Source: Minisyncoccota bacterium
Lineage (GTDB): Bacteria > Patescibacteriota > Minisyncoccia > Phycocordibacterales > UBA9973
Length of the DNA: 64,000 nt
Assembly: GCA_036517215.1 (NCBI GenBank)
Contig: DATDXF010000016.1
Coordinates: 3,175-67,174, forward strand
Reading direction: 5' to 3'
Shown: positions 6,042-57,832 of the stretch, one piece after another
Position numbering within the stretch: position 1 is the stretch's first letter
Layout of the letters: the number at the start of each line of letters is the position of its first letter
Program-made: the position numbers and the translations under genes
The notes under the pieces: generated by a model
What the model saw: only the letters and a program-made list of their open reading frames with translations
Told to the model about the DNA's origin: nothing
The model's database searches: none

Positions 6042-6046
6042 AAATC

Positions 6047-6769: not shown

Positions 6770-6777
6770 TTTTTCTT

Positions 6778-7488: not shown

Positions 7489-7504
7489 TAAGAATTTACT
7501 AAAC

Positions 7505-16544: not shown

Positions 16545-16589
16545 CATTGACAACTTAGTATCGGTGTGTCCTTGTTGCTTATGGCAACA

Positions 16590-16611
16590 GTGCGACCCGA
16601 GTATGTAAAAT
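16590..16611. repeat. Left copy of imperfect direct repeat GTGCGACCCGA-GTAT-GTAAAAT (attL-like)
   Basis: 11-mer GTGCGACCCGA plus GTAT..AAAAT shared with 21721-21761; abuts recQ stop codon. Confidence 0.45.
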
Positions 16612-20542: not shown

Positions 20543-20550
20543 ACATAATT

Positions 20551-32529: not shown

Positions 32530-34008
32530 TTACTCTTCTTCTGTTACCGCAGAAGTCTTTGGAAATGCAGCCCCTTGTGACATTGTTAAGTATGGTCTAA
32601 ATATAAAGGGTACCCAATAGGACATTTGAGCTCCTTTTCTTTCTTGTAAAAACCCTATATCAATTAGCTGTCTAACTATATTTATAAAATCATTTAATTC
32701 ATTTCTTTTAAAAAGAGCTTTGATTGACTCGGATGTCTGTTCTGTTTTTTCTCCTCTGAAAACTTCAATATATTTTCTTAATGAAGGATACTCTGACCAC
32801 AAGGTTTCTACGCGTGCTTTTGAAACCTCATCTAATGCTAAGGTCAAAGCGTTTGCACTTATTAAGTGCCCAGATGGGTTGCTCCCCGTTCCACCAATTT
32901 CCCCCAATCTAACTTGTTGCTCTCGGGCAAATTTTATGAGATTTATTACCTCTCTAGGCGCAGGATTTTGTTTTCCATCCTGGGCACGTCTTAATATCCA
33001 ATCAAAAGTTTTTGATTTTTTTGGTCCAGGTTCAACTTGGTCAGGGAAAATTGTATAAAAAGCCCCATCTTGTATCTTCGGATTACCTAATGTATCACGA
33101 CTAAGTTTTGTATATTCCTCTACCGCTCGATTGTTAAAAAAACGACTTAAAATTAAATGCCTTAGGGAATCGGGTGTCCACTTAATGTGATAAAAACGAG
33201 TAATATGACTTTGTTCTCTAAACCCTTGCTCGTGAGTTATTCTTTCCCAAATATCATCTCTTAAAAATATTTTAAGCTTAATATTATTAAAAGAAGCAAA
33301 ATCTAAATATACTCTAAACAAAGACCTTAGAGCAGGTATTTCTACTGATGGTTTAGTAAAAGCAACATCTAATCTATCAAACATAATCCACAACTCAATC
33401 CCAGATTTTTCTAGAATTTCGTCAATTTCTTTTAAAAGACTACGAACTGACACTTTTCCAGCCTTTTCTTCTTCTTGGGTGGGTTCACCAAGAACCACCG
33501 AATAAGTTGACCCATCTGGCAATCCTACTGTAGGCTGTAATCTTGAAATATATTCTAGAGCACCTCTAAAAATTTTTTGTAGACCTTCAAGTGGAATAAG
33601 CCCTTCTTCTTTAAGACGTTCCAAAATTGGCTTGAATTTATCTTTGTTCTTTTCATCTCTGTTTATAGAGTTTCCAATTAACGATAAGATATAAATCTTC
33701 CAAAGACTTCTAAACTCGTCTTCACTCAATCCTTTCTCGTTTACAGACTGAAATACAGGATCGCCTGAAATTTCTTCACCTGGAATTAAATAGATATTTC
33801 TTTTAAATAAATTTGGTGCATTTTTTTGGAGAAGAAGGTAAAGAGCGCTTTTTCCTGTTCCTTTTCCGCCATAAATTATATCAAAACGACCCTGGTTTAA
33901 CATTTCCCAAGCTTCTGTTTTAATAAAGTAATTTTCAAGCTCTTTTTGTTCTCTTTCTGCAACACTTTCGCCTAAATCTATTCTTTTTAGTATCTCTAAA
34001 TTATTCAT
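32530..34008 (-). CDS. P-loop NTPase (AAA-like ATPase with long Walker A to Walker B spacing)
   Basis: 492 aa; Walker A IIYGGKGTGKSALYLL near N-terminus, Walker B-like LWIMFDRLD ~160 aa later; ~280 aa C-terminal domain of unknown function. Confidence 0.55.
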   Translation of the reverse strand: MNNLEILKRIDLGESVAEREQKELENYFIKTEAWEMLNQGRFDIIYGGKGTGKSALYLLLQKNAPNLFKRNIYLIPGEEISGDPVFQSVNEKGLSEDEFRSLWKIYILSLIGNSINRDEKNKDKFKPILERLKEEGLIPLEGLQKIFRGALEYISRLQPTVGLPDGSTYSVVLGEPTQEEEKAGKVSVRSLLKEIDEILEKSGIELWIMFDRLDVAFTKPSVEIPALRSLFRVYLDFASFNNIKLKIFLRDDIWERITHEQGFREQSHITRFYHIKWTPDSLRHLILSRFFNNRAVEEYTKLSRDTLGNPKIQDGAFYTIFPDQVEPGPKKSKTFDWILRRAQDGKQNPAPREVINLIKFAREQQVRLGEIGGTGSNPSGHLISANALTLALDEVSKARVETLWSEYPSLRKYIEVFRGEKTEQTSESIKALFKRNELNDFINIVRQLIDIGFLQERKGAQMSYWVPFIFRPYLTMSQGAAFPKTSAVTEEE

Positions 34009-34419: not shown

Positions 34420-34565
34420 AATTTAATTATATGCCCGTTCGACATGCCCTTCAACTTCGTTCAGGGCAAGCTCAGGGCACTCGCCTCAAAATACCCTTAG
34501 AGTTCCTTGGGTGTTTTTGCTGTGGCTTGCCACGAGCGAATTTTGTCACTACAAAATGAGTCGAG

Positions 34566-34963
34566 TGGAGATGACGGGAATCGAACCCGTGTGCAAAAGG
34601 TTTTTGCAAAGAAGTCTACATGCTTAGCGAGCTTTTTTGTTTAGATTAAAAAATTCTTAAGCGGGCCAAATATTTTTTAACCGAGTTCTAAGTTTTCGAA
34701 AAATGTTCGAACGGGCATTTCCTTATCCCGATAATATTACACCTCTACTCATATATCGGAAGTCTATGAGAGAGACGCCGGCACTCGCTTACGCGAAAGC
34801 TGGAACGAAAGCAAAGTCCTTCATACCGAAGTAATCAGAAACAATTGCTTTAGTTTTGGTAGTCAATTTTGCAATTAACATTTGAACGAATTTTCACGAG
34901 ATTACGTTCATGCTCGACATGCATCAATAGCAAAGCGACCTTCTGTCTATGCCTTGCATCCCC
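34566..34963 (-). ncRNA. ssrA: tmRNA (transfer-messenger RNA)
   Basis: 5' GGGGAUG pairs 7/7 with 3' CAUCUCC-A including G3:U70 alanine identity pair; T-arm ACGGG-UUCGAUU-CCCGU; in-frame GCA resume codon at nt 92 then 27 sense codons ending GCU-UUC-GCG-UAA (..PAFA); smpB immediately upstream on same strand. Confidence 0.8.
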
Positions 34964-43118: not shown

Positions 43119-45884
43119 TTATTCCATAGAGGTATATCGCGCCATGATTTCGGATTCTACTTCGGCGCGGTCGCGCCCGTATTTCGAATACGAAAGCTCC
43201 TTTAGAGTATCTACTATTTCAGGACTCCCTTTCTCGGGAGGCAAGGTTGTTAAATTAAACGGCTTGGTCGGTTGGCCGCGTACCAGCATATTCACATACG
43301 CATTGTAGTTATCCAGCTTGGTAATATCCTGAGCTGTAAATTGGGGTTTGAATTTGGGTTCTAAGAATGCGGCATCGTCGGTCCCGACCCGGAACACAGC
43401 CATAGAACCTACGTTTCCAAACACGGCATTTTTAATGTTTTCTTCCAGCTGAGTAATATACTGGTGCGCTATATTAAGGGACAAACGGTATTTACGCGCC
43501 TCGGATAAAATAGAGGCAATGGAATCCGTCGTAACGTTCTGGAACTCGTCAATATAAAGGTAAAAGTCATTCATAGGCTTGCCAAACATGTCCACCCGGG
43601 ACAGAGCTGCCATCTGTATCTTGCCCACCAGCACCAAGCCTATCAAATTCGCGTTTATGTCTCCCAGCCGTCCCTTGGAAAGGTTGACCAAAAGAATTTT
43701 TTTCTCATCCATAATTTTTCGGAAGTTGAAAACGGAATTTTGCTGCAGAACCACCGGACGCATTATGTCGTTTGAAATAAAATTATCGAATTTTGACGAA
43801 ATATAAGGCACAAAGTTGGCAAGCGACTGGTCCCCCGTCGTCTGCTCGGCTGAAACCCAAAACTGTTTTATGATTGGGTTCTTACAGCGGGCAAGTTTCA
43901 TATCTCTGAATTCTTTATCTCCTAGGACACGCGTAATCTCAAGTAGAGTGGAGCCTGACTCCGGGTCTTCCATCACCAGAAAAGCGCTGTTCCTGAAATA
44001 CTGCTCAAACATCGCTCCTCCACCTACCTTCATATCGAAAAGCTTATTAAATATGCCCATCATTTCGTTTACCACGAAAGTTTTCTGCTCCGGATATTTC
44101 GGGTCGTATTCAAGCATGTTGAGACCCATGGGGCGCGCGGTATAAGCGGGGTCAAAATATATTACATCATCTATGCGCTCTTTCGGAATGCGGGACAGAA
44201 TGGTCTGGATGTCTGTCCCGTGCGGGTCAATATAACAGCACCCGTCGCCGTTTTTAATATCTTGCGTTATCATGTTGAGCATGATGTTGGTTTTACCGGT
44301 GCCTGTCTGCCCTATCGCGTAAAAATGCCGCATGCGGTCTTCGCGGGCTATGCGTATTTCCGTATCCCGCCCGCGGTAACTGTTTATTCCGAGAAGCACG
44401 CCTTCGGTGCCCATCTCTATCGGCGCGGGAGCTATGCCCGCTTTTGCCTCCCTTAGCTGTGGCTGGCTGCCAATGCCGACAGGAAAATGAAAAACCGAAG
44501 CGAGCTCCTTTAGGTTAAGGGGTAGTATTTTTTCGGGAGAAAATGTTCGGTATGAAAAATCGTGAAAAAGTTTCTTCAGGTCCGCTCCGTGCGCTTGTTC
44601 AAAACGAAACGAGTTGCTGGCCGCTTCCGAAAACTGGTTGAACGAAGATTCTATTTCCCGTAATATTGCTTCGGCGCGTTCCTTGGTGCCGCCGGACGCG
44701 ATGACCCGTATATTAGCCTTCATAATGGTGCTTTTTATTTTATTGCCAATTTTTTCCGCCGCGCCTTCGTCCACCGCGCGCCTGCCCTTCATGTACTTTT
44801 CTTTTTTTTCTTCCTCTTTTTCCTTGTATCCGAAGATCAGCTCTTTCCCCGCCTTCAAAAAGGCTTTGTTGAACTTGTAAAAGTTATCCGCCGCGTGTTT
44901 TACGGAGATGCCGTCTTTGACGTCGTCCAATATCATGTGAAATTCGTTGATGAACTTTTCCCCGGCCGGAGCCACCACGATTTGTATTGCCGCGCCTTCG
45001 CCCGATGTCTGAAGTTTGGAAAAAACGTTCAATATAGGATTCATCGGGTCGTGTTCGATATTGTCGTAAGTCTTGATGGGCATCACCGAACGCTCGGTGA
45101 ACGCCGCGTAGGCTCCGACGGATCCGCCATTCTCGTTGAAGATGTTGTAGTCGTCCCTAACTTCACGGACTTTCGCATTATGGTAAAAAGCCAGGATTTG
45201 TTTTTCAAAAAGGGACAAATGTTTGTTCGGGATGGCCGCGTAAACCACGACTTCGTCGCTTTGGTTGCCGAGCGCCACTTCTAGGACAAAATAACTTTCG
45301 TTTTCGTTGTATTTTCCTTCCCCGATAGACTGCATCCCCGCGTAGAATTGCTCCATCGCTCCTATGAATTCCTTGAACCCTTTTGACTTATCCGCTTCGT
45401 CCGATGGCGGGGGCAGGGTAATTTCAAAAAGCGTCATATTAAAGGCTCTATATAAAGGTGTTCCCTCTTTTACGTCAGCTGTTGCCTGCCCTGTTTTCAG
45501 GTATTGAATGAGGATGCGGTGGAAATCATCTTCGACGTGCGGATTACCCATTGTCTCCACCACGGAAAGCGCGTTTCGGACGCCTTTGGTGATGACTATG
45601 CCAAGGAGTTCTTCCATTACTGTATCGTGCGGTTCGGGCTTCAGGGCGAGAACAATTCCTTCCGCTTCTTTTTGCCCGACAATGTTGTCTTTATGCACGA
45701 CATTTTCAGCTGGTATTTTCTTGTATTCGCCTATCACATCCCGCGTTGCGTTATCTTTCGCGTGCTCTATGTGGCCAATGCTGACCAGTTGCTCTTCCCT
45801 GGCTTTGACATGCGCGCGTAAATAATCAAGCTCATCTTCCGGGCTCTTGAACTTCGGCATCTTCTCAAAAAAGGTCGGTTCCAT
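43119..45884 (-). CDS. VirB4/TraC/HerA-like (DUF87) ATPase
   Basis: 921 aa; Walker A FYAIGQTGTGKT, Walker B YLYIDEFQ, arginine-finger region EARKYRLSLNIAHQ typical of DUF87/VirB4-family. Confidence 0.5.
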   Translation of the reverse strand: MEPTFFEKMPKFKSPEDELDYLRAHVKAREEQLVSIGHIEHAKDNATRDVIGEYKKIPAENVVHKDNIVGQKEAEGIVLALKPEPHDTVMEELLGIVITKGVRNALSVVETMGNPHVEDDFHRILIQYLKTGQATADVKEGTPLYRAFNMTLFEITLPPPSDEADKSKGFKEFIGAMEQFYAGMQSIGEGKYNENESYFVLEVALGNQSDEVVVYAAIPNKHLSLFEKQILAFYHNAKVREVRDDYNIFNENGGSVGAYAAFTERSVMPIKTYDNIEHDPMNPILNVFSKLQTSGEGAAIQIVVAPAGEKFINEFHMILDDVKDGISVKHAADNFYKFNKAFLKAGKELIFGYKEKEEEKKEKYMKGRRAVDEGAAEKIGNKIKSTIMKANIRVIASGGTKERAEAILREIESSFNQFSEAASNSFRFEQAHGADLKKLFHDFSYRTFSPEKILPLNLKELASVFHFPVGIGSQPQLREAKAGIAPAPIEMGTEGVLLGINSYRGRDTEIRIAREDRMRHFYAIGQTGTGKTNIMLNMITQDIKNGDGCCYIDPHGTDIQTILSRIPKERIDDVIYFDPAYTARPMGLNMLEYDPKYPEQKTFVVNEMMGIFNKLFDMKVGGGAMFEQYFRNSAFLVMEDPESGSTLLEITRVLGDKEFRDMKLARCKNPIIKQFWVSAEQTTGDQSLANFVPYISSKFDNFISNDIMRPVVLQQNSVFNFRKIMDEKKILLVNLSKGRLGDINANLIGLVLVGKIQMAALSRVDMFGKPMNDFYLYIDEFQNVTTDSIASILSEARKYRLSLNIAHQYITQLEENIKNAVFGNVGSMAVFRVGTDDAAFLEPKFKPQFTAQDITKLDNYNAYVNMLVRGQPTKPFNLTTLPPEKGSPEIVDTLKELSYSKYGRDRAEVESEIMARYTSME

Positions 45885-47469: not shown

Positions 47470-48072
47470 TTAAAATTCCAATGCCTTAATAATATCTTTG
47501 TGCACGTCTTCCACCGACTGCTCGCCGTTTATAGTATATATGGTATAACCGGTTTTATCTTTGAAATAATTCATCGCAGGCACAACCTTGTTCACGTATT
47601 CGTCGAACCTTTTGGCGAGGCCTTCTTCCGTGTCGTCATGCCTGCCTCGAAGTAAGTTCCTCTTCATCGCTTCAGTTTCCGTCAGTTCAATATAAATAAT
47701 TTTCACGTTCTCTCTTCCGTGCTCTTGCACCATTTTTTCAAAAACTTTTGACTGAACAACGGTTCTCGGATAACCATCGAAAATTCCATGTTTATCTGAC
47801 GATAATTCCGCTTTTACTTTTTCTAAAACTAATTTATTTGTCATCTCATCAGGTATTAACCTGCCGGAATCAAGCAATTCTTTTACAGTCTTGGTAGTAT
47901 CGTCAACCGCGGAAGACGCGATAATTTGCCGAAAAATCTCGCCTGTACCTATGTACACGCATTCTCCCCCGTCGTTCTTTAGATAGTCCATAAGCAATTT
48001 GACCTGCGTTCCCTTGCCTGAACCCACTATCCCAAAAAATACAAAAGTCTGCGCTGAAGTTTTATCTTCCAT
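47470..48072 (-). CDS. adk: Adenylate kinase
   Basis: 200 aa; P-loop GIVGSGKGTQ, short LID. Confidence 0.8.
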   Translation of the reverse strand: MEDKTSAQTFVFFGIVGSGKGTQVKLLMDYLKNDGGECVYIGTGEIFRQIIASSAVDDTTKTVKELLDSGRLIPDEMTNKLVLEKVKAELSSDKHGIFDGYPRTVVQSKVFEKMVQEHGRENVKIIYIELTETEAMKRNLLRGRHDDTEEGLAKRFDEYVNKVVPAMNYFKDKTGYTIYTINGEQSVEDVHKDIIKALEF

Positions 48073-48154
48073 AAGCTAACAATACAAAATTTAGCCCAAA
48101 AAATCAATAGAAATAAAGGTTTTCTTTTGTAATAGAATATGCTTTACTTAAATT

Positions 48155-48757
48155 ATGAAAAAACTTGGGTTTAACATAGTGCTCCTCGGGATGATAGCGT
48201 CCGGCAAAGAAACCCAGGCCAATGTGCTCAAAAAGAAATATGCCCTGAAATTTGTGGAGTCCGGCGTTTTTTCACGCAAACTCCTAAAAGAAAAGAGCAA
48301 AGACGGAGACTGGGCGCGGCGCACTACAGGCAAAGGCAAGCCTTTGCCCACGGTTCTACTGCAAAATTTTTTGAAAAGGGAGATAAGCAACAAGCCTAAA
48401 AATAAAGACTTGCTTTTTCTCGGCACCCCCCGGCTAAAACCCGAAGCCCAGCTGGTAAAAAAAATCCTTGCCGAAAAAGGGCAGGATTTCCTGGCTTTCT
48501 ACATCAGCCTGCCGGACAAGGAAGTATACAAGCGCTCGTTAAAAAGAAAAGAAAGCAATGTAAAAGAAATTTACAAAGCTTTTGACACCCACAAGCTCAT
48601 TAAAACCCGCATCGCCTGGCACAAAGACCAAGTCGGCAAGAGCGTAAAATATTTTAAAAGCCTAAAAAAACTGAGAGTCATCAACGGCAACCAGCCTGTG
48701 GCGAAAGTTACTAAAGATATTTTGAAAGCTATTGAAAATTATAAACAAGAATCGTAA
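48155..48757 (+). CDS. Adenylate-kinase-family P-loop kinase (paralog)
   Basis: 200 aa; P-loop LLGMIASGKETQ. Confidence 0.55.
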   Translation: MKKLGFNIVLLGMIASGKETQANVLKKKYALKFVESGVFSRKLLKEKSKDGDWARRTTGKGKPLPTVLLQNFLKREISNKPKNKDLLFLGTPRLKPEAQLVKKILAEKGQDFLAFYISLPDKEVYKRSLKRKESNVKEIYKAFDTHKLIKTRIAWHKDQVGKSVKYFKSLKKLRVINGNQPVAKVTKDILKAIENYKQES

Positions 48758-48775
48758 TTCATTTTTGCAATTGTC

Positions 48776-48813
48776 ATGTGGTGAAATTTCGCATATGCGA
48801 AATTTCACCACAT
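48776..48813. terminator. 38-nt perfect palindrome ATGTGGTGAAATTTCGCATATGCGAAATTTCACCACAT between convergent genes
   Basis: Seen directly. Confidence 0.6.
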
Positions 48814-48826
48814 GTTTACATATCAA

Positions 48827-49357
48827 TCAAAGCCCGAAATGCGACCTTAACTTCTTATCGTCTAGAACTTTACTAATTTCTAGAATTTCTACATATTTCC
48901 TGACCCCGAAAAAGTCAGCCACAAACAACAGCTCCCCTTCGCATGGATAAGGATAAATCCAGGCACTTTTCTGAAACTGGTAAAAACCCATATCTTTCAA
49001 TTTCCACCTAAAGGCGTTGCGAGCATTTTTGAATCGAATAGGCAAATCATACATGACCAAACGCCATTTGCCGTCCCATTTCTTGGGCGTTTTAATTACG
49101 ACCTCGTCAATTAAAATGTACTGGAGCTTCTTTTCGCCTTTACCCGTAAGCTCATACTTACCATCTTCTTTCACATATCTGACGAATTTATAACGGCGAA
49201 AGCCACGGAAGATTTGTTTGGCTTCCGGGCTATTGTAAAATCCGGATGCTAAATTTTCTCCAAACGCCACTGCGCACAGCATCCTTTGCGCCAAACTGAT
49301 TCCCTCCCCGCCTATGTTTACAACTTTTTTAATTTTCACCAAATGTTCCCGTTTCAT
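48827..49357 (-). CDS. Hypothetical protein with C-terminal Cas2-like / VapD-like domain
   Basis: 176 aa; WRLVMYDLPIRFKNARNAFRWKLKDMGFYQFQKSAWIYP resembles Cas2 core (LVxYDx...R...L...G.R.Q.SV). Confidence 0.4.
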   Translation of the reverse strand: MKREHLVKIKKVVNIGGEGISLAQRMLCAVAFGENLASGFYNSPEAKQIFRGFRRYKFVRYVKEDGKYELTGKGEKKLQYILIDEVVIKTPKKWDGKWRLVMYDLPIRFKNARNAFRWKLKDMGFYQFQKSAWIYPYPCEGELLFVADFFGVRKYVEILEISKVLDDKKLRSHFGL

Positions 49358-49562
49358 ATTACATGGTTAATTTTAGTATATGCATAAATTCACCACAAGG
49401 CACCGGCGGCCAACAGAATGCAAAACGGGGCAGGTTGTCGACCTCGTGGTCTCGGAATACAAAAAGTGGCTGGAAAAATAATTGAGTAGAAATGAGAAGA
49501 CCGCCTGCGAGGTATGGCCGACGGCCTCCTCGTTCAAGCGGTCTTGATTATCAACCCTCTTC

Positions 49563-49877
49563 CTACTCTATACCCTCAACGGACTCGATCTGCTCGCCCA
49601 GAAGGAGGCGAATCTTCTGGACGTCATCCTCGGTGAGTTCCGTCGGAAATTGCTCGATCGGTTCATCCAGAAGAAGGCGAATCATTTCGGCTTCTTCTGC
49701 AGAAAACCCTGTCGCGGGCTTTTCGGAACATCCCGTGAAGACCAGTACACGGGATACTACGATTTCCTCGCGGATGAGGGTTTTCCCTACGACCCTCACG
49801 ACGTCTTCTTCGAGGCTTCCGATGCCCACGAAGCAAACCCCCTCTTTCGCAATCACCTTGATATGCTTGAACGCCAT
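49563..49877 (-). CDS. Small hypothetical protein with tandem C-terminal peptide repeats
   Basis: 104 aa; repeats EAEMIRLLLDEPIEQF / DVQKIRLLLGEQIESV; GC-richer codon usage than genome. Confidence 0.4.
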   Translation of the reverse strand: MAFKHIKVIAKEGVCFVGIGSLEEDVVRVVGKTLIREEIVVSRVLVFTGCSEKPATGFSAEEAEMIRLLLDEPIEQFPTELTEDDVQKIRLLLGEQIESVEGIE

Positions 49878-49894
49878 CTAGGCCTCCTCCGCGC

Positions 49895-50530
49895 TCAACG
49901 AGCGCTGTTATGGTGACGATTTTGAATCACCTCACGCACCAGCAAGCTGGTCAAGGGTTGCGACAGTCGAGTCTGGATTTCCGAAAGAAAATCCAGGTCT
50001 TCTGGAGACACGGAAGTTTCTCCGCTATCCACGATGGCCTGGAGGAACGGTAGGATGTTCGACAGATCCCCCGAATCTGTCGCCTGCAACAACTCGAGTA
50101 TTAGCTCTGGGGAAACAGGATACAACAACCCGTGCCTCAAAGACTTGAGGGTGGCAAACTGCTGTGACGATACTGAAGCTACACCACTTCTGATGACAGC
50201 TTCAATTAGAAGCATCATGTCGGTAATGTTTCTTTTCTTTTGCTCCGCCTTTGCCACGACGAGCAGTAATCCCTCGGAAACCTCGTCTGTTACCATACGG
50301 ACAAGTTCCTCGGCCGACACCCCCATCGCAACGGCGAAGCCGGCAATCACACGAGGCTTTAGTTGTATGTTCTTGAAGATGATGAGGTTCGAAATGGTTC
50401 CCTGGGCCACTCCAACCTCCCTCGCAAACTCCTTTTGGGTCTTGTGGGAACTCGCAAGATACTCCTTCACCTTAACGCTGAACGCTACATTACTTCTCAA
50501 TAGGTTGACCCTACTGTTTTTTGTTTTCAT
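49895..50530 (-). CDS. XRE-family (Cro/C1-type HTH) transcriptional regulator with ~140-aa C-terminal helical domain
   Basis: 211 aa; KTQKEFAREVGVAQGTISNLI HTH; local GC ~52%. Confidence 0.6.
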   Translation of the reverse strand: MKTKNSRVNLLRSNVAFSVKVKEYLASSHKTQKEFAREVGVAQGTISNLIIFKNIQLKPRVIAGFAVAMGVSAEELVRMVTDEVSEGLLLVVAKAEQKKRNITDMMLLIEAVIRSGVASVSSQQFATLKSLRHGLLYPVSPELILELLQATDSGDLSNILPFLQAIVDSGETSVSPEDLDFLSEIQTRLSQPLTSLLVREVIQNRHHNSAR

Positions 50531-50693
50531 GGAACTCTCCTTTTACTTTATATTACATATTTTAATCAAATTGTCAAGATATTTTACCAATTTAATTTAT
50601 TTTAATCCATATAAAACAAGGTTAGAAAGATTTCCTCAGAATTTTGTTATATTTTATTGACACAAAACCAGTATTGGTATATAATGGCTAAAT

Positions 50694-51482
50694 ATGAAAG
50701 AGCAAATATTAAAAATAGAGCAATTACTCAAGGATAGCGGTTTTTTGGACAAGGAAATATCCATATATTTGACTATATTGGAGCTCGGCAGAGGCACAGT
50801 AGCAGAGATTTCCCGCAAAGCGGGTATAAACCGTTCGACGGGGTATGTAATTTTGGACAGCCTAGCCGGGAAAAACCTGGTAAGCATATCCGGCAAAGAA
50901 CCAAAACAGGAATACGTAGCCCTATCCCCCGCCAACCTGGTGGAGTACCTTAGCGCTCAGGCTGAAAAACAAAAAAAGCTCGCGGAGTCCGCGAGAGAAG
51001 TTCTGCCCGAGCTTACCTCCCTCTACAATGTGGGCGACAGGCCGAGAGTATTTTTTTACGAAGGCCTCGCCGGGCTGGAACACGTGTATGAAGATTCCCT
51101 ATCTTCAAAAGGAGATATCTACTCCACTTCCACCTACGAAGAAATGCATGAGACCCTCCCAAAATATTTTTCTACGTATTATGAACGACGAGCAAAGAAA
51201 AAAGTTTTCGTGCATACGTTCGTAGCTGACACTCCCCTTGCTCGAGAAAGAAAAGCCAACGATGAAATCGAATACCGAGACACTTCACTCATTCCGCAAG
51301 ATAAATTCCCTGTACCAACGGACATAGAAATATATAACAACAAAGTTATGATTGCTTCCTGGAAAGAAAAACTGGGAATCATTATTGAATCGGAAGAAAT
51401 AGCCACCACGCTCCGAAGTGTATTCAAACTTGCCCTGACAGAAGCAAAAAAACACGATAAAATTTTAAGCGAAGAAAATTAG
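50694..51482 (+). CDS. TrmB-family transcriptional regulator
   Basis: 262 aa; N-terminal wHTH LTILELGRGTVAEISRKAGINRSTGYVILDSL. Confidence 0.6.
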   Translation: MKEQILKIEQLLKDSGFLDKEISIYLTILELGRGTVAEISRKAGINRSTGYVILDSLAGKNLVSISGKEPKQEYVALSPANLVEYLSAQAEKQKKLAESAREVLPELTSLYNVGDRPRVFFYEGLAGLEHVYEDSLSSKGDIYSTSTYEEMHETLPKYFSTYYERRAKKKVFVHTFVADTPLARERKANDEIEYRDTSLIPQDKFPVPTDIEIYNNKVMIASWKEKLGIIIESEEIATTLRSVFKLALTEAKKHDKILSEEN

Positions 51483-52747
51483 TACTCCCGCATTGAGATT
51501 TGCGCGTCTACTTTTTTCATGAGGTCTAGAACTACCGAGACGACGATGAGGATGGATGTACCTCCAATGGCTAGAGAAGATATGCCGGTAATACGCTGCA
51601 TGACAAGCGGTAGCACCGCTATGAAACCGAGGAAAGTGGCTCCGAGCAAAGTAATGCGGGTTAACACTTTTGATATATACTGCGAAGTAGAGGGTCCCGG
51701 ACGGATGCCTGGAATAAATGCGCCGTTTTTCTGCAGATTTGTAGAAAGAGATTCGGGGTCAAAAGTGACAGCTGTGTAAAAGTAGGTAAACAAAAATACA
51801 AATACGAAGTACAGGATAGCGTAAATCACGCTGGTCTGCGAGAACGCAAGAAGTACCTCTGAAATCTTGGCAATTATTGGATTAGCAAAACGAGTCAAAA
51901 ATGTGCCAATCATTTGCGGGAAAAGAAGTATGGAGAGAGCAAATATTATAGGAATAACTCCGGCTTGGTTCACGCGCAAAGGCAGGTAGGTAGAGCCCCC
52001 GCCATACATTTTCATCCCTCTCACCCGCTTAGCGTAAGTGACGGGTATAGGTCTCTCTGCCTCGGTAACAAGCACTATCCCCGCTATAATCAGAATTCCG
52101 GCAACCAGAAATATCAGGAAAAGAGGAATCTGCGCAGGGGTAAAGTTAAATACAAGCTGGCTTACGGTGGCAGGAAGCTGGGAAACTATCCCGGCGAAGA
52201 TTATGAGTGAAACTCCATTGCCTATGCCGAATTCGGACACAAGTTCCCCTACCCACATGAGAAGGACCGAACCCGCGACCACTATAAACAAGTTCGTAAT
52301 GCGGTCAAAAGATGTCAGGTTTACCAAAATATTCTGCTGTTCCAGGATATATAAAAGCCCGAACCCCTGGATAACCGCAAGAGGCACGGAGAGGAGCCTG
52401 CTGTATTGGGCGAATCTTTTTCTGCCGGCCTCGCCTTCTTCGCTGTAAATTTTCTTGAGAGCGGGCACCATTATGGTAAGAAGCTGCATTATGATCGAAC
52501 CGGTAATGTACGGACCAACTCCGAGCATTATGACCGATAATGTTGTCAGCCCTCCTCCGGAAAATATATTTAAAATTCCGAAAAACTGGTTATTGGAGAG
52601 AAATCTTGAAAGCTGTATGGCATCAACTCCCGGGATGGGAATAGCGGCAAGCAAGCGGAAAATTATCAAGGCAAAAAGCACGAAGAGAACCTTTCTCCTC
52701 AAGGTACCGTCTGTCCAAACCAGTTTTAATTTATCCCAAAAATTCAT
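51479..52747 (-). CDS. secY: Preprotein translocase subunit SecY
   Basis: 422 aa, 10 TM SecY pattern, position after rplO. Confidence 0.9.
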   Translation of the reverse strand: MNFWDKLKLVWTDGTLRRKVLFVLFALIIFRLLAAIPIPGVDAIQLSRFLSNNQFFGILNIFSGGGLTTLSVIMLGVGPYITGSIIMQLLTIMVPALKKIYSEEGEAGRKRFAQYSRLLSVPLAVIQGFGLLYILEQQNILVNLTSFDRITNLFIVVAGSVLLMWVGELVSEFGIGNGVSLIIFAGIVSQLPATVSQLVFNFTPAQIPLFLIFLVAGILIIAGIVLVTEAERPIPVTYAKRVRGMKMYGGGSTYLPLRVNQAGVIPIIFALSILLFPQMIGTFLTRFANPIIAKISEVLLAFSQTSVIYAILYFVFVFLFTYFYTAVTFDPESLSTNLQKNGAFIPGIRPGPSTSQYISKVLTRITLLGATFLGFIAVLPLVMQRITGISSLAIGGTSILIVVSVVLDLMKKVDAQISMREY

Positions 52748-52767: not shown

Positions 52768-53070
52768 TTACTTTAGACGTATCTTCTTGCCTTTGATTCC
52801 GAGGCGCTTGCGGATTTCTGAGAATTTTTCATCTTTACTGGCCAGTTTATCCTTTTCTATCATCAAAACTTTTTGAATAGACTTAAACTGGTATCCGCGG
52901 TTCTTTGGCAGCTTCTTAATGATATCACGAAGCTCTGGTCGGCGCTTATTTCCGGCGCGAGCCGTCTGACCTTTGCCTCCCCTGCCGGACGTCTTCGCGT
53001 GCTTGCCGCCACGTCCCACCAACCTGTCTTTTTTATTCTTATGTACTCTTTTTAGGTTATGTATTTGCAT
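52768..53070 (-). CDS. rplO: 50S ribosomal protein L15 (short form)
   Basis: 100 aa; Gly/Arg/Lys-rich GRGGKHAKTSGRGGKGQTARAG. Confidence 0.8.
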   Translation of the reverse strand: MQIHNLKRVHKNKKDRLVGRGGKHAKTSGRGGKGQTARAGNKRRPELRDIIKKLPKNRGYQFKSIQKVLMIEKDKLASKDEKFSEIRKRLGIKGKKIRLK

Positions 53071-53077
53071 TTGATTA

Positions 53078-53137
53078 GGTTCTAGGTCTTAGCTTCTAGG
53101 TTCTAGTGTTTGACTAGCCCCTAGCAACTAGAAACTA
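53078..53137. repeat. CTAG-rich ~60-nt intergenic repeat filling the rpsE-rplO spacer
   Basis: TTAGGTTCTAGGTCTTAGCTTCTAGGTTCTAG...GACTAGCCCCTAGCAACTAGAAACTAG; homologous to 34971-35042. Confidence 0.6.
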
Positions 53138-53728
53138 GTCACTTTCTTTTAATGGTACTTCTTTATTAGCGATGACAACGGTCTCCGGAGTTATTTTTGT
53201 GTATTTTGAAGAAATTTGAGACAGGGCGGCTATGACGGCTTTCGCGTTGTTCAGCTTGTTCTTACTTTTGGATAAAATCTTTCCGGTGACATCCTTCATC
53301 CCGGAGAGCTTCACGATATCGCGCACAACCGAACCGGCCACAAGTCCGCGCCCTTTGTTTGGAAACAGAACCACCTGATTCCCGGAAAATTTAGCGGAAA
53401 GTTCGTGTGGAATAGACATTGTCTTGGTCAGGTTCAAGCGAATCATGTTTTTCTTTGCATTCCGGAGAGCTTTATTGATGGCAAGCGCGGTGTCCCCGGC
53501 CTTACCCAATCCCAAGCCTACGCTTCCTTTTTTATCTCCCGCGACCAGAGCCACGGAGAAAGAGAACCGGCGGCCTCCGGCTACGACACGGGTTACCCGA
53601 CGGATATTCAATATCTTTTGGTCGAATTCTGGCTTGACCCTGTTGAAAGAAGACCTACCGCGTCCGCCGGTATTTCTTTTTTCTCTCATTCCTGTTCCTG
53701 TATTTTCTTTTGGTTTTGGTTTATCCAT
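53135..53728 (-). CDS. rpsE: 30S ribosomal protein S5
   Basis: 197 aa S5 pattern. Confidence 0.9.
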   Translation of the reverse strand: MDKPKPKENTGTGMREKRNTGGRGRSSFNRVKPEFDQKILNIRRVTRVVAGGRRFSFSVALVAGDKKGSVGLGLGKAGDTALAINKALRNAKKNMIRLNLTKTMSIPHELSAKFSGNQVVLFPNKGRGLVAGSVVRDIVKLSGMKDVTGKILSKSKNKLNNAKAVIAALSQISSKYTKITPETVVIANKEVPLKESD

Positions 53729-55078: not shown

Positions 55079-55264
55079 CTACCAGCTTGATTTACGAACA
55101 CCCGGAAGCATTCCTTCGTTTGCTAATTCCCTGAAACATATTCGGCAAATACCGAAGTCGCGCATAAAAGCATTTCCCCTGCCACAACGAAAACACCTGT
55201 TTTTCTGCCTGGTGGAAAATTTTTGTTTCTTTTTGCTTCTTGCTATAACTGATGTTTTTGCCAT
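55079..55264 (-). CDS. rpsZ: 30S ribosomal protein S14 type Z (zinc-binding)
   Basis: 61 aa; CFRCGRGNAFMRDFGICRIC. Confidence 0.9.
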   Translation of the reverse strand: MAKTSVIARSKKKQKFSTRQKNRCFRCGRGNAFMRDFGICRICFRELANEGMLPGVRKSSW

Positions 55265-55488: not shown

Positions 55489-55926
55489 CTACTTACAGTT
55501 GGGTACAGAATTCCAGCCGGCGTACCCAAGGCTTCCAACCACTATTTTGCACCAGCCGGGAACTGCATCTGTTTCGAGCTGCACAAGCATGGTATATCCT
55601 TTTGTTCTATCGGTATACCAATATCGATATCTATCACTTCTGGTGCGCGTCGGGTCTTCCGGAAGAGTTGCGATATACTTTGGCGTTAATCCGACTACTG
55701 CGTATACAAAAGAAGTAGTCGCAGAAGGGTACGTATTGTTGTCATTATAAAAGATTTCTGTTGCAGTGACGATTTGGCGCAATTCTACTAACCTTTTAGC
55801 ATCTCTAGCTTTTGCCCGCGCGGTATTTAAGCTTGCCATAACAACGCTAGCCAAAATGCCGATGATGGCAACGACTACCAAAAGTTCTATTAAGGTGAAT
55901 GCTCGGTTTGTTGATTTAATATCCAT
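55489..55926 (-). CDS. Type IV pilin (prepilin-type N-terminal cleavage/methylation domain)
   Basis: MDIKSTNRAFTLIELLVVVAIIGILASVV class III signal peptide; 145 aa. Confidence 0.8.
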   Translation of the reverse strand: MDIKSTNRAFTLIELLVVVAIIGILASVVMASLNTARAKARDAKRLVELRQIVTATEIFYNDNNTYPSATTSFVYAVVGLTPKYIATLPEDPTRTRSDRYRYWYTDRTKGYTMLVQLETDAVPGWCKIVVGSLGYAGWNSVPNCK

Positions 55927-55942
55927 TTATTATGATGGGATC

Positions 55943-56335
55943 TTAATTTATTTTATCAATTTCTAGTTCTGGCGGCGATTCGGTGCTGGGTCCGCTTTTT
56001 AAAAATATAAAAAGAGATACAACAATAGCCAGCACCACAAATCCCAAGAGCACATATTCCGCCTGCCTCTCTTCCTTGATCGCTCCACCGGACCATTTCG
56101 TAACTAATTGCACCATTTTCGGAGTAGCCGTTTCTTTATAATATTTTACCGCTCCATAACTTGGGGTTTCAAACTTCACGCCTTCCACTGCATGCTTTGG
56201 CTCAATAATATTACTTTGCTGAATGACTTTCCCGGGCTGCCCATTTGCCGAAGTATTCCCAAACTCTTCTAGCGCTTTCTTTATCTCTTCGTTTCCCTCT
56301 AGATTCAGATCGTCCATGGTAGTATTATACAACAT
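55943..56335 (-). CDS. Hypothetical protein with C-terminal TM anchor (start uncertain: ATG 56335 or 56317)
   Basis: Track start at 56350 is TTG abutting a terminator; TGtTATAAT-like -10 just upstream of ATG 56317. Confidence 0.4.
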   Translation of the reverse strand: MLYNTTMDDLNLEGNEEIKKALEEFGNTSANGQPGKVIQQSNIIEPKHAVEGVKFETPSYGAVKYYKETATPKMVQLVTKWSGGAIKEERQAEYVLLGFVVLAIVVSLFIFLKSGPSTESPPELEIDKIN

Positions 56336-56350
56336 TTTAAAATATATCAA

Positions 56351-56380
56351 AAAAACAAAAAATCCCCCGCCAGAGGCGGG
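56351..56380 (-). terminator. Rho-independent terminator (CCCGCC-TCTG-GCGGG + T-run on minus strand)
   Basis: Downstream of AbrB-like gene. Confidence 0.6.
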
Positions 56381-56413
56381 CAGGCCTCTACGGGGAACTT
56401 TGGGAGGAATTTT

Positions 56414-56596
56414 TTACTTCTTCTTTTTAGTCTTCGCGTCAATAATAGAGACACCGCGAGCAACACGCTTTACCAGAACTCTTTGCTTCTCCCGCCAGCC
56501 GAGAGAGCGCATGATTTCAGCCGGAATTACTATTGAAAAAGATTTTGCTCTGCCGACTCTTGTTATTTTTCTAATTGAATTTATTGGTCTTGCCAT
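56414..56596 (-). CDS. SpoVT/AbrB/MazE-like swapped-hairpin DNA-binding protein
   Basis: 60 aa; ITRVGRAKSFSIVIPAEIMRSLGWREKQRVLVKRV. Confidence 0.55.
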   Translation of the reverse strand: MARPINSIRKITRVGRAKSFSIVIPAEIMRSLGWREKQRVLVKRVARGVSIIDAKTKKKK

Positions 56597-56623
56597 ACTT
56601 TAACTGATGAGTTAACTCAGTAA

Positions 56624-57022
56624 TTAATTTCTTGTTTTTAATTCTATTTCCTCTTTTTGTAAATCAAATTTAACAATAAAATTTTCAAAAAATCCTTTTT
56701 GCCCGACGAGGCCATATGGCATTACTCTGCCGGCAACATCAGGCATAAAACCTACTTCAGCTTTATGCGTCCACCCTCCTACTTCAATTTCAATACTATG
56801 CAAATAGTATAAAGAGACTTTTCCTCCAACTCCAAATACCTCACGGGGTTTACCTTTAGAAATATCAAGACCGAGCGCTTCACCAACTTCTGAATGAAAA
56901 AGACAAATATCGGCCCCTGAATCAACCAGGGCCTCATAAAGAAGAGATCTGTGATTTGATTTTAATTTAATCTCTATAACAGGTCGTAGCGCTAAACCGT
57001 ATTTCTGATAGTTGAATTTCAT
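56624..57022 (-). CDS. Retropepsin-like aspartic peptidase (clan AA)
   Basis: 132 aa; LVDSGAD catalytic motif (D-S-G-A). Confidence 0.6.
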   Translation of the reverse strand: MKFNYQKYGLALRPVIEIKLKSNHRSLLYEALVDSGADICLFHSEVGEALGLDISKGKPREVFGVGGKVSLYYLHSIEIEVGGWTHKAEVGFMPDVAGRVMPYGLVGQKGFFENFIVKFDLQKEEIELKTRN

Positions 57023-57213
57023 AGAGCCCCAACATAAGCATCTAAGGTTTTTGGCATTCGGCTAAAAATAGGGGAATTATACCCTTTTTTAAAAGCTTGG
57101 TTCATGGCTTCTTTGAGAGTTTTTCCACTTCCCACCACAGTATCTCTGTCATCAGCAAGTGCTACCCAAAGACCTTTATATTTATTGAACATTTTCGTTC
57201 GATCTTTCACCAT
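57019..57213 (-). CDS. Small hypothetical protein (DUF5678-like pattern), translationally coupled to the protease
   Basis: 64 aa; KYKGLWVAL...GKTLKEAMNQAFKKGY; ATGA overlap with downstream ORF. Confidence 0.45.
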   Translation of the reverse strand: MVKDRTKMFNKYKGLWVALADDRDTVVGSGKTLKEAMNQAFKKGYNSPIFSRMPKTLDAYVGAL

Positions 57214-57250: not shown

Positions 57251-57832
57251 CTACTTCTTCTTACTGTCTTCTTCTGTCTTGAAAGGCACCCCTAAGAGCT
57301 CAAAAAATGCTGTTCCTTCTTTGATATTTTTGGCGGTAGAAACCAGAGTAACAGACATCCCGAAAATATCTCGGATATCTTCATCGGCTGTTTCAGGAAA
57401 AATGGTGTGCTCTTTTATGCCTATCGTCAGGTTTCCTATGTTGTCCACCGCCTTGCGGGAAATTCCACGGAAGTCTTTGGTGCGGGGTAAAGCGACATTT
57501 ATAAGTTTTTCAAGGAAGGCGAACATTCTTTTCCCTCGGAGTGTTACGGAAACTCCCACCGGGTCGCCTTGACGAATCTTGAAAGAAGAAATTGACTGCT
57601 TGGCTCCGCGCAGAGTCGTCTTTTGCCCGGTTATTTTTGCGAGCCTGTCGGCAACAGCGTCATTTTTATTTTTGTCTTTCTTTATCATTGTGCCGGTGCC
57701 GACATTGATAACAACCTTTACCATCTTGGGCGCTGCCATTTTGTTCTTATACCCGAAGACACTTTTTAATCTCTCAAAAGCTTCTCCTTCTTTTTCTCTG
57801 ACTGTTAAATTTTCCGTTAAATGTTTTGTCAT
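57251..57832 (-). CDS. rplE: 50S ribosomal protein L5
   Basis: 193 aa. Confidence 0.9.
   Translation of the reverse strand: MTKHLTENLTVREKEGEAFERLKSVFGYKNKMAAPKMVKVVINVGTGTMIKKDKNKNDAVADRLAKITGQKTTLRGAKQSISSFKIRQGDPVGVSVTLRGKRMFAFLEKLINVALPRTKDFRGISRKAVDNIGNLTIGIKEHTIFPETADEDIRDIFGMSVTLVSTAKNIKEGTAFFELLGVPFKTEEDSKKK

Follow-up and report, generated by a model that had tools for sequence, protein, structure and literature searches.

A variable secY-adk junction in a Nomurabacteria genome with an apparently foreign two-gene cassette beside a TrmB-family gene

The window analysed here is a stretch of 64,000 nucleotides (64 kb) from a genome of the Nomurabacteria (candidate phyla radiation, CPR), in which secY and adk are separated by five genes spanning 3.4 kb. 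An interrupted secY-adk junction had been proposed in a preliminary description of this DNA, and the open reading frames (ORFs) and Pfam matches agree with the genes described there. The flanks and the features between them are as follows, with strands where a feature has one.

47470..48072, minus strand: adk1 (PF00406, 96 bits), conserved flank
48155..48757, plus strand: adk2, divergent short-form NMP kinase (PF00406, 62.5 bits, above the cut-off), divergent from adk1
48775..48814: perfect 40-nt palindrome (20+20) in the gap where adk2 and the PaaX-like gene converge
48827..49357, minus strand: truncated PaaX-type regulator of 176 aa (PF20803, E 1.1e-19), winged helix plus Cas2-like domain
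49364..49402: imperfect palindrome, proposed operator, 7-45 nt upstream of the PaaX-like start codon and overlapping that gene's own -10 box
49431..49481, plus strand: relic of a cmk-like P-loop kinase, last 16 codons (QVVDLVVSEYKKWLEK) plus stop
49487..49548: GC-rich hairpin, likely bidirectional terminator, separating the cassette from the cmk relic, whose 3' ends both face it
~49549..50552, minus strand: variable cassette, a two-gene operon (XRE and 104-aa genes) of about 1.0 kb corresponding to the high-GC core
49563..49877, minus strand: 104-aa acidic protein, orphan, with two 23-aa repeats
49895..50530, minus strand: XRE-type helix-turn-helix (HTH) regulator of 211 aa (HTH_3, PHROG repressor families, PADLOC PDC-M69A)
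50531..50693: back-to-back promoter region (promoter scan and conservation)
50577-50550, minus strand: predicted cassette promoter, TTGACA-16-TAATAT (promoter scan)
50657-50685, plus strand: predicted trmB promoter, TTGACA-17-TATAAT (promoter scan)
50694..51482, plus strand: TrmB-family regulator (PF01978, 49 bits, cut-off 25.6 bits), convergent with secY
51479..52747, minus strand: secY (PF00344, E 1.6e-100), last gene of the ribosomal-protein operon, conserved flank

SecY is 76-85% identical across 80 Nomurabacteria loci, and the backbone on the other side, where adk1 is followed by an archaeal-type pyrH, map and then a gene for a 921-aa DUF8128 ATPase, is kept in 74 of 80 loci. Since an identical gene order was found on contigs of at least 9 independent assemblies, the arrangement is not an assembly artefact. 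No recombinase or integrase was present among the window ORFs (ORF list and Pfam), the nearest tRNA was more than 14 kb away from the segment and no meaningful direct repeats were found around it. Given that a recombinase, a tRNA/att target and flanking direct repeats are all lacking, a classical genomic island or integrative element was rejected.

The junction was compared in about 170 related loci, among them 80 species-level Nomurabacteria relatives and 80 TrmB-anchored metagenome loci, and gap counts were based on the 74 relatives that have both flanks (individual loci are cited by L numbers). It had been assumed that secY is normally followed directly by adk, but in this clade this is true for only 13 of the 74 relatives. 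The length of the gap varied from 42 to 3100 bp; it contained a reverse cmk-like gene in 39/74 relatives, a reverse adk2 in 18/74, and in about 15 relatives extras such as HicAB, MNT/HEPN, PemK, small asparaginase-like genes and orphans. Both trmB (3/80 species representatives) and the PaaX-like gene (2-3/80) were rare at the junction, and these two genes and adk2 each recurred at the same junction in other lineages in differing combinations. The content of the interval is not conserved in relatives, as the idea of an accessory segment had implied, and the junction varies throughout the lineage, forming a patchwork of modules that can be exchanged separately. Judging from the sequence comparison, three putative modules with separate functions are resolved: adk2, the PaaX-like gene with its palindromes, and TrmB with a promoter and a swappable cassette.

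Chromosomal integration hotspots between conserved core genes are a general concept. The present junction resembles such hotspots in that syntenic core flanks (secY; adk-pyrH-map) enclose varying content including toxin-antitoxin genes and orphans, but it lies within the ribosomal-protein/secY/adk/map superoperon, which is normally invariant; its size is small (0-3 kb), and it has no integrases or tRNA genes.

Homology to L022, L054 and L057 ends at about position 50552, right after the -10 box of the cassette promoter, and restarts at 49548, the base of the terminator. The XRE and 104-aa genes between these points were absent in the 80 species-level Nomurabacteria relatives and in the 80 TrmB-anchored metagenome loci, and other lineages hold unrelated cassettes of one to three genes in the slot (145+187 aa; 138+87 aa; 326 aa; two XRE genes plus a 50-aa gene). 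The ends of the cassette are not marked by any recombinase, attachment site or direct repeat.

The first gene of the cassette encodes a protein with a Cro/C1-type helix-turn-helix. The HTH_3 match (E 8.5e-5, 22.9 bits) was just below the 23-bit cut-off, several PHROG repressor families also matched and relatives are annotated as HTH_3/19/31. Behind the HTH, a rare C-terminal module of about 50 aa occurs twice in tandem, as detected with the module HMM at residues 105-149 (23.8 bits) and 158-208 (58.7 bits). This C-terminal domain was initially called novel; the module is rare, yet a search of 1.8 billion representatives gave four small relatives. The XRE relatives are 34-43% identical and all in CPR genomes: L176 contributes two of the four, both from the corresponding TrmB slot, and a different CPR genome has one that is flanked by tuf and rpsJ. 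The 104-aa gene starts 18 nt downstream of the end of the XRE gene (17 nt after its stop codon). The repeats reported earlier for its product were recovered as two 23-aa copies, the protein repeat beating 5000/5000 shuffles; in DNA the repeat covers 45 nt with 76% identity and 69-nt spacing, and TRF reported nothing for it. A search of 5.8 billion proteins returned no homolog except the protein itself, and no Pfam, PHROG, PADLOC, NCBIfam or toxin family was matched. Sharing of the C-terminal module of XRE by the 104-aa protein was rejected (profile score -0.3 bits, equalled by 618 of 2000 shuffles), and by the same profile test the pair is not of the SinR/SinI type in which the partner is homologous to the oligomerisation module of the repressor.

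XRE is most likely a regulator that binds DNA, and the 104-aa protein its small acidic partner with a modulating role. As in SinR/SinI and in systems with the XRE-type antitoxins HipB/HigA, an N-terminal XRE HTH is combined with a short helical C-terminal module, and a small protein, predicted to be co-transcribed, is encoded immediately downstream. In contrast to these systems, the C-terminal module belongs to a rare CPR-only family and is duplicated, and the partner has no significant similarity to the module, to any toxin or to the SinI family. A selfish or defensive cassette (toxin-antitoxin or abortive infection, with XRE as the antitoxin) that persists by addiction or phage defence is a less probable explanation, although it would fit the compact two-gene operon with XRE in first position, the HicAB, MNT/HEPN and PemK-type modules at the junction of relatives and the fact that strain-variable orphan cassettes are typical of defence islands. 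XRE also weakly matches HipB and the PADLOC candidate PDC-M69A (E 3e-6), which points the same way, but these matches cover the generic HTH only. Furthermore, searches of the 104-aa protein (Pfam, NCBIfam, PADLOC, PHROGs) detected neither a toxin nor an effector domain, and the protein is strongly acidic, unlike most type II toxins, and in L176 two XRE paralogs are accompanied by a 50-aa acidic ORF and no recognisable toxin.

GC content is not uniform along the window. The core at 49400-50540 has 51.7% GC compared with 43.1% for the window, which agrees with the approximately 52% given previously, and only 0.2% of sliding windows of 1140 nt reach this value. GC alone is weak evidence because a second peak of similar height is found near 31 kb (~30.4-31.6 kb), inside an ordinary long ORF. 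The GC3 values of the 104-aa ORF (0.638, z 2.4) and the XRE gene (0.590, z 1.7) are the two highest of 62 ORFs, and the different codon usage suggested at the outset was confirmed in that the XRE gene has the worst synonymous-codon likelihood and is the least typical gene in the window. Among the 62 ORFs only the two cassette genes have strong Shine-Dalgarno (SD) sites, AAGGAGAG for XRE and GGAGGAGG for the 104-aa gene, with energies of -12.1 (104-aa gene) and -9.3 kcal/mol compared with an ORF mean of -1.5 (sd 2.7). SD sites also precede the first cassette genes of L022/L096, L054, L057, L099, L106 and L176, and the cassettes of L022, L054 and L176 are likewise GC-rich, whereas that of L057 is not.

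As no donor sequence was found for the cassette, its transfer was inferred from composition and distribution. The foreign part of the 3.4-kb segment is reduced by these data to the approximately 1.0 kb between promoter and terminator (~49549-50552): horizontal acquisition is supported for the cassette only, because of its composition, SD sites and breakpoints and because other cassettes fill the same slot, whereas GC3 is native, and SD sites are absent, in trmB, the PaaX-like gene and adk2. Only the two-gene cassette thus looks recently foreign. The alternative that the GC-rich core is native, composed of fast-evolving or new orphan genes with a composition set by amino-acid content or local mutation bias, is very unlikely given that the GC excess is greatest at third codon positions, that both genes have strong SD sites in a genome otherwise without them, that the sharp homology breakpoints coincide with the shift in composition and that in the closest relative 94%-identical and conserved flanks enclose a cassette unrelated to this one. 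What speaks for a native core is the missing donor, the restriction of XRE relatives to CPR genomes and the GC peak in the ordinary gene near 31 kb.

The regulator next to secY has a TrmB-type winged helix at its N-terminus, and its match to the TrmB structure 3qph (E 3.7e-4) spans residues 8-165. The 3' ends of trmB and secY overlap by 4 nt, and trmB orthologs with 74-92% identity adjoin secY in L022/L096, L054, L057, L099, L102, L103 and L106; the ortholog in L176 is on a 1.8-kb contig that ends inside trmB and does not cover the secY side. Like the archaeal sugar-sensing TrmB (3qph), the protein has an N-terminal TrmB winged helix (PF01978) and is encoded divergently from its presumed target promoter. 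It differs in having no recognisable TrmB sugar-binding C-terminal domain and in that the presumed targets are changing orphan cassettes instead of sugar-metabolism genes. The promoter region contains long invariant blocks over four genomes (e.g. AATAAATTAAATTGGTAAAAT) and its homology stops just past the cassette -10 box, and the predicted cassette promoter is kept in 8 lineages ahead of different genes. TrmB and the conserved divergent promoter region may therefore constitute an expression slot, in which whatever sits between the cassette -10 box and the conserved terminator would be transcribed. Recent replacement would have brought in the present cassette from a source, probably another CPR bacterium, whose GC is higher and whose genes use SD sites, and the exchange may have occurred via recombination in the conserved flanks.

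In having a resident promoter beside a resident gene that would drive unrelated, apparently foreign cassettes at a fixed site, the locus resembles an integron platform. However, an integrase, attI/attC and a cassette array are all missing, the gene resident here encodes a TrmB regulator, the cassettes are small operons of one to three genes with their own SD sites (that of L176 also has its own terminator) and exchange is probably by homologous recombination in the flanks. An integron was rejected given the lack of an integrase and the finding that cassette ends across lineages share only the host promoter and terminator.

The terminator hairpin (-35.7 kcal/mol, z -4.7) is followed by CUCAUUUCU and, together with the adjoining cmk relic, is 94% identical to L022/L096 despite the differing cassettes. 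The relic was found by tblastn with the kinases of six relatives, and an intact cmk-like gene occupies its position in 39/74 relatives and in L096. The cmk homology breaks at about 49427, and a weak similarity is lost by about 49403, where the upstream palindrome has its edge. The ancestor of the window would have carried a cmk-like gene, of which the recombination event introducing the PaaX-like module and adk2 would have left just 16 codons.

adk2 also matched the UMP-CMP kinase family, and all NCBIfam adk equivalogs were below their cut-offs. It is present in the same place and orientation in 18 relatives, with 69-81% identity in 17 of these and 48% in L079, and is native in composition. 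The finding that adk2 and the cmk-like gene never co-occur suggests a CMP/UMP-type kinase role for adk2, which is a resident NMP kinase in the slot beside adk1 where most relatives have the cmk-like kinase.

For the PaaX-like protein, the AF2 model (pLDDT 78) gave E. coli PaaX (8a39, 166 columns) and Rv0674 (3kfw) followed by Cas2 chains as top Foldseek matches, and with the PF20803 match this groups it with PaaX and Cas2. It ends at residue 176, just past the Cas2-like domain, and is therefore a truncated relative (mini-PaaX) and not a full PaaX; the C-terminal helical effector (phenylacetyl-CoA) domain is absent, with no PaaX_C match. Homologs form more than 367 CPR clusters, and the family is CPR-specific with the secY-adk junction as its usual site, although it also occurs outside. 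Within the Cas2-like strand (YDLP) the conserved Asp is invariant. Cas2 models matched weakly, there were no cas genes among the neighbours and no short-period direct-repeat array in the 64-kb window; with no adjacent cas1 and no CRISPR array, a CRISPR Cas2 of an adaptation module was rejected.

The downstream palindrome can form a hairpin of -30 kcal/mol on either strand and has perfect counterparts with compensated changes in L057, L079, L182 and L185. It is perfect, as originally stated, but 40 nt long and not 38. Equivalents of the upstream palindrome were found in L057, L079, L182, L183 and L185, and as RNA it gave no fold (z +1.1). Flanking palindromes accompany 6/6 Nomurabacteria-type PaaX-like genes and have a different sequence in distant homologs, and the motif is almost confined, over 2.3 Mb of loci, to the vicinity of PaaX-like genes. 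The palindrome proposed as a boundary is hence no island boundary: it belongs to a pair of cognate sites of about 38 nt that enclose the PaaX-like gene, as they also do in relatives. An orphan palindrome was seen in L088.

The cognate palindromes (36-40 nt) overlap the -10 box/start codon and co-vary with the protein across lineages. From these sequence patterns, mini-PaaX most likely binds the two flanking palindromes. Binding to the upstream site would silence its own, probably leaderless, transcript because this site overlaps the -10 box and the start codon, and the perfect downstream site would serve as a second operator and/or as a hairpin stop between the convergent genes. The downstream palindromes are perfectly symmetric and variable in position, which an RNA/DNA hairpin would explain at least as well as a protein operator. 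In E. coli, the PaaX operator is an inverted repeat of about 39 bp (TGATTC-N27-GAATCA) and PaaX represses its own promoter by blocking RNA polymerase (PMC9493321). Mini-PaaX shares with PaaX of E. coli W (phenylacetate catabolon, 8a39) the N-terminal winged helix followed by a Cas2-like middle domain, and palindromes of 36-40 bp that overlap its own -10 box. It differs in length (176 aa vs ~305-316 aa) and lacks the C-terminal ligand-binding domain, no paa genes are nearby, and the two cognate sites bracket its own gene, the downstream one being a perfect hairpin.

It is very unlikely that the palindrome-bounded unit is a small mobile element with a Cas2-like domain acting on the hairpin ends, which has reshaped the junction. 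Such an element would account for the compact 630 bp between hairpin-forming palindromes, the position relative to the neighbouring kinases that varies by genome, the presence outside the junction, the cmk deletion junction near the palindrome edge, the orphan palindrome in L088 and the invariant Asp. However, the unit is single copy per locus, and the rest of the 64-kb window yielded no second copy. Target-site duplications were not seen, nor were viral or plasmid copies found; the upstream palindrome overlaps the -10 box and start codon like an autoregulatory operator, and in structure the protein is closest to an established repressor whose operator has a comparable span.

The reading that we favour, with moderate confidence, is that the variable junction arose from several separate events, involving adk2, mini-PaaX and a TrmB expression slot with a recently acquired XRE/104-aa cassette. 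A single acquired island of 3.4 kb from trmB to adk2 with the palindrome as one end has the least to recommend it: although all five genes are missing from the canonical bacterial secY-adk-map order, TrmB and the PaaX-like gene are rare at the site and identity between lineages is higher for TrmB (85-92%) than for SecY (80-84%), a possible sign that TrmB moves, acquisition as one unit is contradicted by homology breakpoints at the cassette and not at the 3.4-kb ends, by the native GC3 and lack of SD sites of trmB, the PaaX-like gene and adk2, by the separate occurrence of these three genes in varied combinations at the junction of relatives, by the relic of a displaced resident cmk-like gene inside the segment and by the pairing of the palindrome with a second copy around one gene.

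The 3.4 kb between secY and adk1 is a mosaic of three parts: a resident kinase polymorphism in which adk2 replaces a cmk-like gene, a self-contained PaaX-like gene (mini-PaaX) with two palindromes, and a TrmB-linked slot with a recently replaced cassette. Few gene orders in bacteria are as conserved as the ribosomal-protein/secY/adk/map block, which is also the backbone of CPR phylogenomics. In the window S5, L15 and SecY are the last genes of the ribosomal-protein operon, which is on the minus strand, and five ORFs separate SecY from adk1, just as described in a preliminary description made from the sequence alone. The features, with the evidence for the ORFs in parentheses, are:

51479-52747, minus strand: SecY, final gene of the ribosomal-protein operon
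50694-51482, plus strand: TrmB-type regulator (ORF and Pfam)
49895-50530, minus strand: XRE-type HTH protein, 211 aa (ORF and Pfam)
49563-49877, minus strand: 104-aa ORF without Pfam domain (ORF)
49364-49402: degenerate twin palindrome, 7-45 nt upstream of the PaaX-like start codon
48827-49357, minus strand: PaaX_M/Cas2-like protein, 176 aa (ORF and Pfam)
48775-48814: perfect palindrome, 40 nt, downstream of the PaaX-like gene
48155-48757, plus strand: adk2, second ADK-family kinase (ORF and Pfam)
47470-48072: adk1, in the downstream backbone, followed by an archaeal-type UMP kinase, map and a 921-aa DUF8128 ATPase

An assembly chimera was ruled out since many independent contigs show the same gene arrangement. 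The window is from a Nomurabacteria (Patescibacteria/CPR) genome; identical-sequence contigs came from Rifle-aquifer and other groundwater assemblies, and the SecY protein was 76-85% identical to that of 80 species-level MAGs named Nomurabacteria or Paceibacterota. No tRNA was found near the segment and a permissive Rfam scan of 47900-51600 gave chance-level matches only. The L15 protein is short (100 aa) and its gene follows S5 directly, with no L30 gene in between (52768-53728), which is a known CPR trait.

Both flanks were found in 74 of the 80 relatives. The backbone SecY-adk1-(pyrH)-map-DUF8128 was kept in these, and the SecY-adk gap varied between 42 and 3100 bp. In 13 relatives secY and adk were directly adjacent, and this adk had only about 35% identity to adk1; in 39 the gap held a reverse-strand cmk-like P-loop kinase of about 190 aa (Cytidylate_kin2) and in 18 a reverse-strand adk2 (69-81% identical, 48% in one locus, L079). 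The two kinases, both reverse-strand neighbours of adk1 (18 versus 39 of 74), did not co-occur in any relative, which suggests non-orthologous displacement of a CMP/UMP-type kinase. Extra genes were present in about 15 loci (HicAB-, MNT/HEPN- and PemK-like pairs, small asparaginase-like proteins and orphans). At the junction TrmB was found in 3 and the PaaX-like gene in 2-3 of the 80 relatives, and the XRE and 104-aa genes in none of these or of 80 further TrmB-anchored metagenome loci, including when every ORF of all loci was searched with profiles. The secY-adk joint is thus a site of routine gene turnover in one CPR class, and offers a defined and comparable locus for studying gene uptake and expression in genome-reduced symbionts. 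The DUF8128 protein (43119-45884, minus strand) resembles a TraG/TrwB coupling protein; it follows map in essentially all 74 relatives at 76-90% identity, a conservation equal to that of SecY.

The high-GC core with deviant codon usage was borne out by measurement. The GC content of 49400-50540 is 51.7% compared to 43.1% for the window, a value reached by 0.2% of equally long windows, and a second peak of similar height lies within a long ORF at about 30.4-31.6 kb. Among 62 ORFs the 104-aa ORF and XRE had the highest GC3 (0.638 and 0.590) and XRE departed furthest from typical synonymous-codon usage; the composition of TrmB, the PaaX-like gene and adk2 was ordinary. The anti-SD pairing energy upstream of the 62 starts averaged -1.5 ± 2.7 kcal/mol, indicating that Shine-Dalgarno (SD) sites are essentially unused in this genome, and the only two outliers were the 104-aa ORF (GGAGGAGG, -12.1 kcal/mol) and XRE (AAGGAGAG, -9.3 kcal/mol). 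Strong SD sites were confined to accessory genes, in the window to these two. In another CPR locus (L178, 6001-11788) genes inserted among tuf, rpsJ, rplC and their neighbours have SD sites and most ribosomal-protein genes lack them. SD sites in otherwise SD-less CPR genomes provide a practical marker for foreign genes. Several long ORFs at 16611-21600 and 32530-34008 have very low GC3 (0.23-0.33, z -1.8 to -3.3), and are possibly AT-rich foreign or fast-evolving regions.

The limits of the apparently foreign DNA were obtained by comparison with the TrmB-bearing loci L022/L096, L054 and L057. DNA homology with these spans L15, SecY, TrmB and the intergenic region upstream of trmB, ends at about 50552 and restarts at 49548, leaving a 1.0-kb cassette with the XRE and 104-aa genes. 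A promoter scan of the intergenic region predicted back-to-back promoters with long invariant blocks between them: a perfect TTGACA-17-TATAAT whose end lies 8 nt upstream of the trmB start, and a TTGACA-16-TAATAT directed into the cassette. The left breakpoint lies just past the -10 box of the cassette promoter, and the right one at the foot of a hairpin (-35.7 kcal/mol, z -4.7) that is GC-rich and leads into a U-rich tail. The same cassette promoter heads unrelated genes in eight lineages, and the occupants include 145+187 aa in L022/L096 (diverged copies in L099, L105 and L121), 138+87 aa in L057/L097/L109, 326 aa in L054, and two XRE paralogs with a 50-aa ORF in L176. None of the occupants in other lineages belonged to a Pfam, PADLOC or PHROG family; their first genes carry strong SD sites and 3 of 4 measured were GC-rich relative to their hosts. 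Taken together, the breakpoints and the shared promoter and terminator indicate that the high-GC core currently fills a conserved slot beside trmB that runs from promoter to terminator. Since no recombinase, attachment site or donor was found for the cassette, the most economical, if unproven, explanation is that it was exchanged through homologous recombination within the conserved flanks.

Word-index searches with either cassette protein returned self matches only, and an exhaustive HMMER search of 1.8 billion representatives yielded four small relatives of XRE (128-141 aa, 34-43% identity), two of which are the tandem genes in the TrmB slot of L176, another Nomurabacteria contig, and one of which is flanked by tuf and rpsJ in a different CPR genome. 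XRE and these relatives have in common the HTH and, at the C-terminus, a module of about 50 aa, which is duplicated in the window protein (residues 105-149 and 158-208); a single-sequence AF2 model (pLDDT 47) was unusable. The 104-aa ORF starts 18 nt after the end of XRE, preceded by the strongest SD site in the window, and encodes a strongly acidic protein for which no homolog or domain was found. The tandem repeat noted earlier in this protein is present as two significant 23-aa repeats, but there are only two diverged copies and TRF found nothing. In permissive Pfam scans, neither the 104-aa protein nor the C-terminal regions of XRE and TrmB had a match. A SinR/SinI-like relationship, in which the repeats would be akin to the XRE module, was negative in a profile and shuffle test. 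We can only infer that the 104-aa protein might modulate XRE, or else be half of a toxin-antitoxin-like or defence pair.

Beyond the right breakpoint, the window and L022/L096 share 94% identity over 119 bp (49430-49548), compared to about 76% for the coding DNA of the same pair. The stretch was rejected as an RNA gene and consists of the terminator hairpin and a gene relic, in which the cmk-like kinase is reduced to its final 16 codons plus stop (QVVDLVVSEYKKWLEK, 49431-49481, plus strand). The cmk homology is clear until about 49427 and weak to about 49403, where the palindrome upstream of the PaaX-like gene starts. As L096 has an intact cmk-like gene at the position of the relic, the ancestor was L096-like, with the order SecY-TrmB-cassette-terminator-cmk-adk1. 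A later recombination would then have exchanged the cmk body for palindrome-PaaX-like-palindrome-adk2, an arrangement found intact in L185. The relic shows a second event, separate from the cassette replacement. The horizontal acquisition proposed in the preliminary description has good support in the case of the 1.0-kb cassette but lacks it for the whole 3.4 kb taken as one unit, and genes within such a gap need not all form one island.

The palindrome had been taken to mark a boundary of the segment. It is indeed perfect, but rather than delimiting the segment the site at 48775-48814 pairs with its twin at 49364-49402 around the PaaX-like gene. The same layout, with an imperfect palindrome a few nt before the ATG and a near-perfect one 5-60 nt past the stop, was found in L057, L079, L182, L183 and L185, and the Nomurabacteria consensus has the arms TGTnGTGAAwTnnwGCAT and ATGCwnnAwTTCACnACA. 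In 2.3 Mb of loci this motif occurs almost exclusively beside PaaX-like genes. The exceptions are L088, which has a degenerate orphan palindrome (11339-11366) and no PaaX-like gene, and L057, in which a third perfect palindrome of this type (11291-11325) lies between the 3' ends of secY and trmB, so that the palindromes bracket the whole accessory unit there. Distant homologs in other CPR lineages (31-42% identity) have the same layout with other palindromes, e.g. with the arms TGTAACACTT-N6-CGG and CCG-N6-AAGTGTTACA. The right arm of the upstream site is usually TGCTAAAAT, an extended -10 box, with the ATG within about 10 nt, which in our reading of the sequences suggests that the transcript is leaderless and could be blocked by a bound protein. 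The upstream site does not fold as RNA and the downstream site forms a -30 kcal/mol hairpin on either strand.

The PaaX-like protein family comprises >367 clusters, all from CPR, and in 3 of 4 sampled long contigs the gene lies in the secY-adk junction after one or two orphan ORFs. A sequence search of the PDB gave nothing significant and relatives surfaced only by fold search: with a model built from 104 homologs (pLDDT 78), the best matches were E. coli PaaX and Rv0674 over both domains, followed by Cas2 proteins. A CRISPR-associated role of the Cas2-like protein was rejected since neither a CRISPR array nor cas1 was found near the gene. The E. coli PaaX protein binds the sequence TGATTC-N27-GAATCA and, by keeping RNA polymerase out, represses the promoter of its own gene (PMC9493321); the PaaX-like protein differs in lacking the PaaX C-terminal domain. 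The simplest reading is that it is a truncated PaaX-type autorepressor with two candidate cognate operators. Scans of viral contigs for the PaaX-like, XRE and 104-aa proteins were empty, as were a plasmid DNA search and a phage protein search. In five loci of other CPR lineages (L128, L134, L144, L157 and L172, at about 6000-7500) a TrmB paralog (about 50% identity) and a mini-PaaX homolog are arranged convergently, the latter again flanked by palindromes of its own, and the pair adjoins a ComM/Mg-chelatase-like gene; the pairing thus recurs away from secY.

The locus provides two testable regulatory modules, mini-PaaX with its cognate palindromes and the TrmB-linked promoter driving variable cassettes. 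It resembles known integration hotspots and autoregulated repressors, here inside a normally invariant superoperon of genome-reduced symbionts. A far-reaching and rather unlikely interpretation is that Nomurabacteria keep, where the ribosomal-protein operon ends, an integrase-free 'plug-in' site for gene expression, consisting of TrmB and an ultra-conserved divergent promoter, into which foreign SD-bearing cassettes from other CPR bacteria would be swapped by recombination and expressed under the control of the host, with the palindromes of the adjoining self-bracketing mini-PaaX/Cas2-like repressor insulating or delimiting the accessory unit. If true, this would be a previously undescribed route for ultra-small symbionts to sample accessory genes.

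Elsewhere in the window, a predicted tmRNA (34565-34963, minus strand) has an atypical tag peptide, ARSNIFRKLRTRLKNIWPA, a call that may be wrong, and ARAGORN predicted a tRNA-Ser with the unusual anticodon ACT (16459-16545, plus strand), divergent from a tRNA-Ser GCT (16278-16369, minus strand). The ribosomal-protein operon is broken a second time at 55489-57213 (minus strand), where five genes lie between rplE (57251-57832) and rpsN (55079-55264): a DUF5678 protein (64 aa), a retropepsin-like Asp_protease_2 (132 aa, GC3 0.24), a MazE/AbrB-like 60-aa ORF, a 135-aa orphan and an N_methyl pilin-like protein (145 aa).
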